Below are positions 41,498-44,765 of a stretch of 64,000 nt of DNA, in pieces (the stretch's first letter is position 1; the number at the start of each line of letters is the position of its first letter). The position numbers and the translations under genes are program-made. This stretch comes from a virus (lineage: Duplodnaviria; Caudoviricetes), in the IMG/VR virus record IMGVR_UViG_3300028048_000045, positions 160,001-224,000 of that record. One strand, given 5' to 3'. Under the pieces are notes generated by a model that saw nothing but the letters and a program-made list of their open reading frames with translations, did not search any database and had not been told where the DNA came from.

Positions 41498-41514
41498 ATT
41501 TTACCCCTAGTTTG

Positions 41515-41590
41515 TTTATAGATAGTATTCTTTCTATCTTTAATAATATTTAAGAATTCATACAAATTCTATTCATTATTATAATATATA
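41515..41590 (-). promoter_or_regulatory. promoter plus two-hairpin leader cassette, copy 1
   Basis: 76 nt matching 53771-53846 with 2 mismatches; contains TATATTATAATAATG and two hairpins. Confidence 0.75.
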
Positions 41591-41647
41591 AGAAAAATTA
41601 TTTTTTTTTTGTAAAAAAAAGAAAAGGGGTTAAAACCCCAATTCTTT

Positions 41648-41974
41648 CTAGCGACTGTACCGGGCAGGATCATAACCCTGTTTTTCAAACAGGACTGGAT
41701 CCCACTTTGCAGCTCGTCTATAAAGCACGAGCTCACTGATTCCGGTTCCTCGATATTTATCGAGGATATCACGGCAGTGCATACCTGCCCTAAAGTCAGC
41801 TTCAATAGATACCCAATCCGGCTTCTTTCTAGTCGGATCTCCAGCAATAATATTTATGCCATTTTTCTTAGCATAAATCTTGAGTGCAGCATAACTGCAT
41901 CCAATTTCTTTAGCTATCTCACTGAGTGGTTTACTCCAATCAGCGAGCTCATAATGAACACTGTTCTTTGCCAT
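41648..41974 (-). CDS. helix-turn-helix DNA-binding protein
   Basis: PLSEIAKEIGCSYAALKIY HTH and a second HTH-like segment; GC visibly higher than flanks. Confidence 0.7.
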   Translation of the reverse strand: MAKNSVHYELADWSKPLSEIAKEIGCSYAALKIYAKKNGINIIAGDPTRKKPDWVSIEADFRAGMHCRDILDKYRGTGISELVLYRRAAKWDPVLFEKQGYDPARYSR

Positions 41975-42086
41975 ATTTTCCTCCTTATAGCATAAATATA
42001 ATATATTAAAATGGAATATTATTTTACAAAATTCGTTTATTAAACATCTCAATATATCTTAATAAAAAGGGAGGTGATAGTTAATT

Positions 42087-43349
42087 ATGAGTATCCAATT
42101 TAATGATGGACAGCTTCAAGCCATTAAGAAAGCAATCAAATGGTACTTTGTTGATAGTTTTACTCAACAAGTATTTGCTCTTGGTGGCTTGGCTTGAAAA
42201 TCAATTCGAATTGAATAATAAATAATTATCAATCGAGCCGGAACTGGAAAATCCACAACAGTAAATACTATAATTAAGATGTTAGGTATACCAATTAATG
42301 ATGTAATATTTGCAACTTTAACAGCTAAAGCATCATTAGTTCTACGTCTTAAAGGAAACCCCTCTAATACTATTCATAAAACGTTTTATACAGTTTATAA
42401 AAAAGGAAATTCGTTTTTATTCAATAAAAAACATAGAATTCCTTCAAATATAAGATTAATTGTAATAGATGAAGCTTCAATGGTTAATGAAGCTATGCTC
42501 AATGATATACTTTCATTTGGTTTACCGACTATGTTACTTATGGATCCTGGTCAGGTTCCACCTGTTTTTGGTACAAATAAGTATGTTGAAGATCCGAATA
42601 ATCTGGATGTTTTCTTAACACAAGTTATGAGACAGTCTGACGAATCTGGTATTCTTGATCTTGCTATGAAAGCTCGTAATGGTGAACCACTCCCTATGGG
42701 ATATTGTAAAAACTCATTAGTAACAACATTTGATAAAGTACAAGATCATCTTGGAGATTATTCGGTTATTTTATGTTATGCTAATAAAACACGTCGTATA
42801 TTAAATCAAATGGTTAGAGAACAAAAAGGCTATAAATCCATTTATCCTCAAAAAGGTGAAAAAGTTTTATGTCTTTTAAATAACTATAATTATGAACTAG
42901 AATATAATGACGTTCCTATTTATCTAATTAATGGATTAACGGGGTATGTTAAAGAAGATTCCTTTATAGAAGATAAAAACGATATGGAATTATTAAATCT
43001 TAAATTTACTCCAGATTTCTTAATGGACTGTGGAGATCCTAATATGGTTTTTAATTCTGTATGTTTTAGAGAAATATTCGAACAGTATCAGAAAGATCCT
43101 AGTAAAGAAGCATTTATTGAAGAGCTATATAATAATGAACTTGAAGATGATGCTCTTGGTGAAGTTGGTATGATTGATTTTGGTTATGCGTTCACCGTAC
43201 ATAAAAGTCAAGGTTCTGAATACGAACATCCATTAGTAGTAATGGATATACAAGATAGACCCGTAACAGAGTTATTTTATAGTAAATTTTTGTACACAAG
43301 TTTGACCAGAGGAAAAAAAGCCGTTACTGTAGCTTTTATGCATGATTAA
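42087..43349 (+). CDS. Dda/RecD-like SF1B helicase interrupted by a 45-nt insertion in Walker A
   Basis: ATG 42087 with GGAGGTG RBS gives MSIQFNDGQLQAI...LGGLA, then TGA; the same frame resumes AGTGKSTT. Later motifs: TIHK, IDEASM, DPGQVPPV, VMRQ, YAFTVHKSQGSEY, YTSLTR. Confidence 0.9.
42195..42239 (+). other. candidate translational-bypass (hop) element or mini-intron
   Basis: 45 nt with in-frame TGA, TAA, TAA; bounded by Ala codons GCT and GCC; ends can pair (GGCTTGA/TCGAGCC). Confidence 0.7.
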
Positions 43350-43386
43350 AACGAAAAAAATAGGGAGTTTCTCTCCCTATTTTTTT

Positions 43387-44169
43387 TTATTCTTCATTTG
43401 TAGGAAATATATATTCTGTATCACCTATAGTTTTTACAATCCCATTATCTAATAATATTTCATCACCCATATTTTCATATTGATTTAAAATATTCAAATT
43501 TTCATATTCTTCTTGTGTTATGTATTCAAATCTATACCCTTTACTATGCCCACAAACATTTTTAAAGGCAGTTTCTACAAACCACGTATTAAATCCGTGA
43601 TCTCTACACCAAGCACACGCACAACGTGCATATTCTGTAGACCCATTCGGATATATAACTTTCAAAAACTTATTATCAGACTTATTTTTATACTGATCTT
43701 TATAATAAACCCATCTACAATTATCTTTAGTATAACTTTTATCATTATCTATTCTATCTAGTGAGATTTCATTGACTGGATATTTCTTTCTCATTTCTAC
43801 CCATGATGTATATAAAGCATCGTAAAAATCTATAAAATACTTAAATTCATCACTATTAATACCTCTATTAACATAACGATCAGCTTCTTTTTTCTTAGTA
43901 TTAGTAGTTCTATCTCTCATATTTCGCCATCTATTAAAGAATATCGGATCACTCATATGGTTGAAATGATCACAATCTTTATGGAACATACCTTCTAATC
44001 TAAGAACCACATATCGTGCTCGTAGTTTTTCTCTACCACATTTAACACATTTCATTCTATATACTGTGATTTGTTTATTCTTTAAAGGATTTCTAGAATC
44101 TGTCCAAGGTATAATTTCGACACATTTCATATCACCGTAAATATCACCAATATTGATTTCATTTGTCAT
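43387..44169 (-). CDS. free-standing HNH homing endonuclease
   Basis: CVKCG, WRNMRDR, Y..RGI, SLDRIDNDKSYTKDNCRW motifs. Confidence 0.85.
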   Translation of the reverse strand: MTNEINIGDIYGDMKCVEIIPWTDSRNPLKNKQITVYRMKCVKCGREKLRARYVVLRLEGMFHKDCDHFNHMSDPIFFNRWRNMRDRTTNTKKKEADRYVNRGINSDEFKYFIDFYDALYTSWVEMRKKYPVNEISLDRIDNDKSYTKDNCRWVYYKDQYKNKSDNKFLKVIYPNGSTEYARCACAWCRDHGFNTWFVETAFKNVCGHSKGYRFEYITQEEYENLNILNQYENMGDEILLDNGIVKTIGDTEYIFPTNEE

Positions 44170-44221
44170 AAGTTAAAATACCTCCTTACAAATATTATGA
44201 ATAAAATATATAACTATAAAA

Positions 44222-44292
44222 GAAAAGCAGTTACAGTAGCATTTTTAGAATAATATTAAAAAAAATAGGGAGAAAAACTCCCTATTTTTTTT
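44222..44292 (+). repeat. degenerate duplicate of the helicase 3' end and its terminator
   Basis: Encodes KAVTVAFLE* versus KAVTVAFMHD* at about 43317-43349; both are followed by an ATAGGGAG...CTCCCTAT hairpin. Confidence 0.8.
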
Positions 44293-44765
44293 TATAATAA
44301 ATAAAATTTATTAGTAGTATAAATGGTTTTCATTTCTTCATCTATTAAAGATTTCATATTAGTTATTTTTATGAAATATTCAACAAAATTTCTAATATAA
44401 TGTTTATCATATTTTAAACTATATAACGGTGAAATAAGTATTTCTCTACAATAATCATTAAGATTTACAGTCCAAATATTTTTGATATTTTCAGATCCAT
44501 CAATATCATCGAATAGTTTAAGTAAATAATCTAAACGATTCATTAAAATTCTATATTGATTGAATTGATACTTTACGGATTTCTCATCAAAATGTTGATA
44601 TTTTGTATTTCTAAAATATTTTTGTGCTTCTATTAAAAAACGTATACATTTCTTCTTGTATTTTTTCGTTATATTAGATGAACTAGAAAGAACTATATTG
44701 TAAATAAACAATGTTCTTTCAATCAACAAACTTAGTATAAATCTTTTATATTTACATTTATACAT
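44292..44765 (-). CDS. hypothetical protein
   Basis: 157-aa ORF. Confidence 0.55.
   Translation of the reverse strand: MYKCKYKRFILSLLIERTLFIYNIVLSSSSNITKKYKKKCIRFLIEAQKYFRNTKYQHFDEKSVKYQFNQYRILMNRLDYLLKLFDDIDGSENIKNIWTVNLNDYCREILISPLYSLKYDKHYIRNFVEYFIKITNMKSLIDEEMKTIYTTNKFYLL

Follow-up and report, generated by a model that had tools for sequence, protein, structure and literature searches.

An interrupted Walker A motif in a phage helicase gene

How might a virus make a complete helicase from a gene in which the codons for the Walker A motif (P-loop) are parted by 45 nucleotides (nt) that open with a stop codon? The question is raised by a gene at positions 42087 to 43349 of a 64,000-nt stretch of DNA (hereafter, the window), which covers positions 160,001 to 224,000 of the IMG/VR virus record IMGVR_UViG_3300028048_000045 (Duplodnaviria; Caudoviricetes), a gut phage contig of 276 kb with 29% G+C and an estimated completeness of 99%. 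It is clear from the orthologs that the window's gap belongs, as one allele among several, to a rapidly evolving series in which the interruption measures 0, 1, 6, 8, 9, 10, 11, 13, 14, 35, or 45 nt. From this comparison, we think it fairly probable that the gap is crossed by programmed translational bypass, or by a +1 frameshift where the insert is a single nucleotide, and that the site lies in DNA under pressure to evade a nuclease.

The gene is on the plus strand, behind a Shine-Dalgarno sequence (42069..42076) that was read directly and is kept in orthologs. Its first part comprises 36 codons from the ATG to the proposed take-off codon (42087..42194) and covers the N-terminal helix, strand beta-1, and the opening residues of Walker A, matching the N-termini of uninterrupted orthologs residue for residue in alignment. 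The take-off codon itself, GCT (Ala, 42192..42194), is the last to agree with the consensus protein and holds the same place in three orthologous loci (L045, L010, and L011). The in-frame 45-nt gap follows (42195..42239), with stops at 42195-42197 (TGA), 42216-42218 (TAA), and 42219-42221 (TAA), and its last triplet, GCC (Ala, 42237..42239), the proposed landing codon, encodes the same residue as the take-off codon and is the earliest GCN to follow it in any frame. From the resume codon GGA at 42240, the second part (42240..43349) stays open for 369 codons up to a TAA stop at 43347-43349 and carries the remainder of Walker A together with every other SF1 motif. Joining the two parts (36 + 369 codons) gives a product of 405 amino acids (aa) in which Walker A is restored exactly and which is collinear with the uninterrupted orthologs; these are 398-405 aa long and unbroken through Walker A, and one of them, P0002, has 405 aa and is 86% identical. 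The original prediction, made from the window's letters alone, had described this in-frame insert, the stop directly after GCT, the synonymous GCC directly before the resume codon, and a 405-aa helicase on deletion of the 45 nt, and direct reading together with the orthologs bears all of this out. That the interruption goes beyond chance is apparent from the orthologs and not from the window sequence alone.

Judged by its sequence, the gene product is an SF1B RecD/Dda-like helicase, as Pfam finds AAA_30, AAA_19, and UvrD_C_2 in the second part with scores above the curated cut-offs, and the same part matches RecD2 (3e1s) and a related solved chain (9kwf). The helicase is single copy, with no second copy in the 276-kb genome. 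The 14-nt palindrome that had been predicted in the insert, a possible hairpin, is present at 42201..42214, and its core is shared with the 35-nt insert of L046. Neither the 45 nt nor the palindrome has another copy in the window or the genome, and the insert is thus rejected as a dispersed repeat of the kind known as a byp. Megablast against the INPHARED phage collection gave no match.

Orthologs carry a series of inserts within the same five codons

Ortholog DNA was read from pig-gut and other metagenomes. Database orthologs had often been called as truncated proteins starting at an internal Met behind the P-loop, and for these the underlying DNA was read. Thirteen insert types were found, the window's included, which answers the earlier call for an alignment of orthologs with inserts of 1-35 nt at the same place in relatives. 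With the take-off codon, first insert codon, and last insert codon given in that order, the window has 45 nt at 42195-42239 (GCT, TGA, GCC), L046 has 35 nt at 163-197 (GCG, TAG, TCT), L045 has 14 nt at 567-580 (GCT, TAA, GCC), L001 has 13 nt at 484-496 (GCG, TGA, GTT), and L011 has 11 nt at 203-213 (GCT, TAA, GTT). Two types measure 10 nt, one in L002 at 922-931 (GGC, TAA, GGC) and one in L016 at 1494-1503, also present in L009 (GGC, TGA, GGT). These are followed by 9 nt in L044 at 132-140 (GCG, TAA, TCT), 8 nt in L010 at 2502-2509 (GCT, TGA, GCT), and 6 nt in L012 at 1151-1156 (CTT, TAG, CTT), the last being the same in L048-L057, ten contigs each from a different sample. Three further types consist of a single nucleotide: at L003:1470, also in L004, where TAA stands in the A site after the take-off codon GGG and the +1 triplet is GGT; at L015:1500, with take-off GCC and AGG in the A site; and at L042:667, also in L043 and L047, with take-off ACG and AGG in the A site.

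Every insert lies within the same five Walker A codons (Leu-Ala-Gly-Thr-Gly), and no allele whose DNA was read has any other lesion, both halves being open over their whole normal length. All three frame relations (0, +1, and +2) occur, and deletion of the insert always restores the consensus protein. The inserts of 45, 35, 14, 13, and 9 nt (window, L046, L045, L001, and L044) form a nested indel series in our alignment A2, as expected of one homologous insert, and four contigs with an identical encoded downstream protein have four different inserts. Uninterrupted genes are found in close relatives (L018, with 99% aa identity, and L008) and in about twenty more distant loci. The interrupted form is nonetheless widespread, given that in database clusters of 265, 63, 45, and 39 members most of those read have the truncated lengths of interrupted alleles.

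These observations bear on two explanations that need no ribosome to leave the reading frame. An assembly or sequencing artifact has next to no probability, as independent ENA, JGI, and Logan assemblies show the same class of insert and identical inserts recur in separate samples (L009 and L016, L003 and L004, L042 and L047, and L048-L057). It is also highly improbable that the insert is removed from the RNA, whether as a micro-intron, by editing, or by a cut-and-ligate enzyme. The phage is large and poorly known, and the ends of its 45-nt insert can pair, both of which leave some room for such a process; however, a common splicing signal is impossible in unrelated inserts of 1-14 nt, the gap shows no significant fold, Rfam gave no family match in 41500-44400, and the rules described below for first codons and matched codons make sense only for a ribosome. 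A very small excised intron, offered as an alternative in the original prediction, is therefore not supported, the 1-14 nt inserts of relatives being too short to be introns. A self-splicing intron was likewise rejected, since the insert has only 45 nt and no group I or group II core was detected by Rfam in the same interval.

First codons and landing sites follow a probable decoding signature

The first insert codon is a stop in 11 of the 13 types, against a chance of 0.08 for a random triplet at this base composition, and AGG, which makes up 0.12% of the codons in this genome, in the other two. Within the homologous family of alignment A2, it reads TGA, TAG, TAA, TGA, and TAA, and in the family of L002 and L016 either TAA or TGA is present, with differences at three of the seven other insert bases; the stop thus persists while its spelling drifts. 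The landing sites show a comparable regularity. Seven types, the window's among them, have a downstream triplet from the family of the take-off codon, and in each of these the one encountered first, whichever the frame, is the landing site that restores the reading frame; no cognate triplet therefore offers an earlier landing inside the gap. The GCT-to-GCC pair of the window recurs in L045 across 14 nt. Four types lack a cognate-family triplet in the gap and the next 30 nt; they end in GTT or TCT, for which two-out-of-three pairing would be possible. Among the 1-nt alleles, only L003 allows re-pairing in the +1 frame (GGG to GGT).

Since all three frame relations occur, readthrough is excluded along with any single frameshift rule, which extends the earlier argument that three in-frame stops speak against simple readthrough. 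An alternative genetic code was considered and rejected, as the gap mixes TGA with TAA and most inserts in relatives are not multiples of three; TAA ends the helicase gene and 143 of 174 long open reading frames.

The ribosome hop that the original prediction had suggested is the reading that the comparison supports best, through inserts that begin with a stop or AGG, landing codons that are mostly cognate or near-cognate, and purifying selection. In the window, a ribosome holding peptidyl-tRNA-Ala on GCT (42192-42194) would meet TGA in its A site and decode it slowly, whereupon the anticodon would release and the mRNA slide until the same tRNA re-paired with GCC at 42237-42239, the first GCN downstream. 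Decoding would restart at GGA 42240 and yield a single 405-aa RecD/Dda-like helicase with Walker A intact. Ribosomes that did not hop would terminate and release a 36-aa peptide, so that a probable further effect of the gap is a lower yield of helicase. Alleles with a 1-nt insert would be decoded by a +1 frameshift at the stop or at the rare AGG. The anatomy of the gene, the allele series, and the selection acting on it are matters of observation, and it is from these that we infer the hop, its efficiency, and a link to a nuclease.

Termination followed by reinitiation just downstream would give two polypeptides of 36 and 369 aa that assemble non-covalently, as the products of genes split by MobA or MobE do. 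Split topoisomerase and ribonucleotide reductase genes of T4-like phages function as two chains, and in L001 and L010 the stop is overlapped by a GTG or TTG that is in frame with the downstream part and is used by gene callers. However, no canonical start occurs in the P-loop frame after the last stop and before the resume codon in the window, L002, L016, L003, L011, or L012, nor in L042, L044, L045, or L046, and in L046 a stop is followed by just two codons before decoding would resume. The tails that are added in MobA-split genes are missing as well, and a split at this point would part strand beta-1 from the P-loop into which it leads. Reinitiation was accordingly rejected as a general model, most alleles having no start codon in the downstream frame, and we consider the two-chain explanation improbable.

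RNA structure and stimulatory signals

Translational bypass might be aided by RNA structure, and the original prediction had proposed that a stem brings the two sites together. This stem (42191-42197 with 42233-42239), with an inner hairpin, does form in the minimum-free-energy fold, and the pairing of the gap ends is kept in L045, but its stability is indistinguishable from chance (z about -0.9 to -1.0 against shuffled sequences). In the short alleles, the gap is too small to accommodate a fold of its own. Interrupted and intact alleles do not differ in their 36-residue N-terminus, and consequently no dedicated nascent-peptide signal can be read from the sequence.

Both halves of the gene are under purifying selection

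Relaxed selection, which would mark a pseudogene, had been named in advance as the sign to look for, and it was not seen. Pairs of loci that share an insert were compared, so that their divergence should postdate it, and the values that follow are for the downstream part of the gene. The window differs from L045, L046, and L044 with a synonymous divergence (dS) of 0.30-0.36 and a ratio of nonsynonymous to synonymous divergence (dN/dS) of 0.03, and from L001 with a dS of 0.44 and a dN/dS of 0.07; the corresponding values are 0.75 and 0.095 for L002 and L016, and 0.49 and 0.026 for L012 and L049. The 36-codon upstream part has a dN/dS of 0 to 0.15 in most pairs and of 0.34 in one, the last resting on five differences. 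Given the numbers of differences observed, neutral evolution should have introduced 3-8 new stops in each pair, and none were seen (P 0.0004 to 0.03). Selection has therefore maintained both halves of the gene. The codons closest to the gap are particularly informative: of the 13 that lead from the resume point up to the first internal ATG, eight differ among the nine alleles of the window's clade, always synonymously, and in most alleles these 13 codons belong to no open reading frame with a canonical start.

Synonymous diversity itself peaks at helicase codons 31-45 (window 42177-42221 and 42240-42266, compared with L001, L015, L018, and L042-L046), where ten codons show 13 to 16 extra codon states, compared with about 3 to 4 in other parts of the gene, and at one position all four Gly codons are used among nine near-identical alleles. 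This implies that the P-loop DNA diversifies without a change in the protein, and it suggests selection on the DNA sequence itself. The P-loop-coding DNA is apparently the target of a sequence-specific nuclease, in which case inserts and synonymous changes alike may be selected for destroying the target, with only hoppable inserts surviving.

Neighboring elements and the case for null alleles

Two elements flank the interrupted part of the gene. At its 3' end, a free-standing HNH endonuclease gene (43387..44169, minus strand; PHROG HNH families, E 3.5e-18) lies in a cassette (43350-44298) that brought a new gene end and terminator and displaced the old end. The leftover of the original 3' end, comprising its last 11 codons, stop, and terminator (44218..44298, plus strand), agrees with the ends of the gene in L001 and L015, and the terminator hairpin at 43360-43385 is repeated in it. 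Because the cassette was inserted into the 3' end of the helicase gene, that gene is evidently a homing site. L018 and L001 also carry the HNH gene, whereas L015 lacks it. The second element, a 109-aa helix-turn-helix-like gene (41648..41977, minus strand), lies immediately upstream of the helicase; its sole match is a weak PHROG hit to the helix-turn-helix of the terminase small subunit. L001 has a version with 59% identity, but L015 and L018 have none, so that it constitutes a second insertion/deletion polymorphism flanking the helicase. A tblastn search with the HNH and 109-aa proteins against all loci revealed no consistent co-occurrence with inserts, and PHROG scans of the neighbor genes at eight loci yielded no endonuclease signature. 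Given that the HNH gene does not track the insert, the idea that inserts shield a nuclease target is one that we infer from the 3'-end cassette and the synonymous hotspot and not from linkage.

Several observations weigh against bypass, or against the nuclease pressure proposed to lie behind it. The presence of the HNH gene is not correlated with that of the insert, as L018 has the former without the latter and L015 the reverse. Folds of the window's gap and of those of six relatives are no better than those of shuffled sequence, and neither a nascent-peptide signal like that of gene 60 nor a correctly spaced Shine-Dalgarno sequence was found in the helicase gene. The GTT and TCT landing codons of four types are only near-cognate to the Ala take-off, and the two AGG alleles have no re-pairing option. 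Uninterrupted alleles (L018 and P0132) nest in the same clade of 95-99% identity, and the N-terminal part diverges differently from the rest of the gene; recombination could therefore have moved inserts into genes that had already diverged, weakening the dating by dN/dS. Finally, some alleles known from protein only break the rules: P0187 (15 members) has a window-like insert with Trp in place of the stop as first insert codon, P0188 (12 members) apparently has two separate 1-nt insertions, one of the L015 type and one of the L003 type, and P0190 has Glu for the P-loop glycines. Such alleles imply that non-functional, dead forms of the gene probably circulate.

Much of this would also be expected if the interrupted genes were simply null alleles, in which a nuclease (homing endonuclease, CRISPR, or restriction) cuts the P-loop DNA and sloppy repair leaves inserts that kill a dispensable helicase, the alleles being too young, or too often refreshed by recombination from intact ones, to have decayed further. 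The hypervariability of the insert among near-identical genes, the peak of synonymous variation at the same codons, the HNH cassette in the 3' end, the intact alleles in the same clade, and the rule-breaking P0187, P0188, and P0190 all fit this explanation, and repair of a staggered cut also yields duplicated codons around a filler. Nevertheless, null alleles have no need of a stop as first codon, yet 11 of 13 types have one, kept across its spellings; only insertions were seen and no deletions; and the three clades that share an insert have reached a dS of 0.3-0.75 with a dN/dS of 0.03-0.10 and no secondary stops. The strictly synonymous change in the P-loop codons behind the gap, the majority held by the interrupted form in four database clusters, and the single-copy state of the helicase also run counter to loss of function. 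We consider null alleles, the main rival to bypass, to be an unlikely explanation, though one with an appreciable chance of being correct.

Comparison with known bypass systems

Natural bypass has been documented in few places, namely, T4 gene 60 and its homologs, the mitochondria of Magnusiomyces, and, provisionally, the terminase of the Streptomyces phage phiHau3. T4 gene 60 reportedly has a 50-nt bypass, with homologs said to lie in a MobA homing-endonuclease element; the phiHau3 terminase is said to contain 10-nt inserts, and byps have reportedly been found in the mitochondria of Magnusiomyces capitatus. If hopping does occur at the helicase locus, it would supply a natural in-frame stop-hop, and its allelic gap series at one site would amount to a natural experiment in how gap length, A-site codon, and landing match relate to hop efficiency. 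No paper describing this helicase insert series was found in the literature.

In gene 60 and its homologs, the A site holds a stop or a hungry AGG, the take-off and landing codons match or are related by wobble, and triplets that would permit a premature landing are missing; the gene 60 insert protects against MobA (bioRxiv 10.1101/2022.08.31.505936, Manning and Atkins). The helicase gap is of similar size (45 versus 50 nt) and also lies early in a phage DNA-metabolism gene among invariant catalytic-motif residues, with a stop, or AGG in some alleles, directly after the take-off codon and a gap free of premature landing triplets. An endonuclease cassette, here of the HNH type, sits in the same gene in both cases, and the insert would disrupt a DNA target while leaving the protein unchanged. 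The differences are also considerable. The helicase is an SF1B enzyme and not a topoisomerase, its insert is unrelated in sequence, and its take-off residue is Ala (Leu, Gly, or Thr in relatives) and not Gly or Asp. Gap length is unconserved, ranging from 1 to 45 nt among near-identical genes, whereas the take-off stem-loop, nascent-peptide signal, and spaced Shine-Dalgarno sequence of gene 60 have no demonstrated counterpart here, where bypass is deduced from sequences. Moreover, 1.1 kb separates the gap from the HNH gene at the 3' end, and the two do not consistently occur together, unlike in the gene 60/MobA arrangement. Membership in the MobA/gene 60 cassette family was rejected on the grounds of a different gene, a hypervariable and unrelated insert, and the lack of added tails, only the mechanism being analogous.

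The other systems resemble the helicase in different respects. Inserts of 10 nt in the phiHau3 terminase are bypassed at a rare UUA, and a junction peptide in Escherichia coli supported bypass over frameshifting (Antonov 2023, PMC10732093). Short gaps, a slow A-site codon, and a nearby landing codon are common to both, and the phiHau3 gap likewise lies in an essential phage gene; however, its A-site codon is a host-regulated sense codon with a proposed regulatory role, in contrast to the stop, P-loop site, and hypervariable inserts found here. The byps of Magnusiomyces capitatus mitochondria accept two-out-of-three matches with little dependence on context (PMC5009743). They resemble the helicase series in that many short inserts are tolerated by hopping and imperfect two-out-of-three matches are used, but they are dispersed repeats at 81 sites with an unused A-site codon, as opposed to one site in one gene.

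Stop-hops with matched codons around a stop have been built in E. coli as low-efficiency laboratory constructs (Weiss 1987, as cited in PMC5009743 and PMC10732093), and a 2016 review, which knew of no natural in-frame stop-hop, noted that shorter matched-codon counterparts had long been expected (PMC5009743). The 6-nt alleles of L012 and L048-L057 have just this form, a CTT, a TAG, and a landing CTT, such that 9 nt specify one residue; they differ from the synthetic constructs in being natural alleles under selection in many samples. Sites of +1 frameshifting at a stop or hungry codon are known from prfB and yeast Ty1 and Ty3 (PMC5009743). The 1-nt alleles are similar in having TAA (L003) or AGG followed by C (L015 and L042) in the A site and in taking the next residue from the +1 triplet, but no upstream Shine-Dalgarno stimulator was seen, and these are alleles of relatives and not of the window.

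Implications for annotation and phage evolution

The interrupted alleles have consequences for annotation, as this helicase has been entered in databases hundreds of times as a protein with a truncated N-terminus and no P-loop. For phage evolution, the series indicates that a conserved catalytic motif is apparently a battleground at the DNA level, with inserts and synonymous changes building up in the DNA and the protein remaining the same. It is tempting, if quite doubtful, to generalize this to a strategy in which ribosomes hop so readily in these phages, and with so little dependence on context, much as in Magnusiomyces mitochondria, that short stop-led inserts are tolerated and any conserved DNA motif targeted by a nuclease can be disguised. 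Were this so, the P-loop series would be one visible case, and gene callers would misread such genes as broken.

A phage factor might also aid hopping, and one conceivable example is a tRNA with a six-base anticodon loop at G000:C1:243277-243351. This gene lies outside the window in the same genome, directly after a tRNA-Leu(taa). ARAGORN, which assigns the six-base loop, is ambiguous as to whether it represents an Arg (TCT) tRNA or one with an amber-reading CTA anticodon, and the odd loop could affect frame maintenance or the reading of TAG.

One further peculiarity of the gene was observed in three relatives in which Walker A is intact. At L013:2400-2520, L014:2370-2500, and L029:1390-1510, the helicase has no ATG, GTG, or TTG start, and its N-terminus follows a GGAG box with an apparent ATT start. 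This non-canonical start may be another way to lower helicase output.

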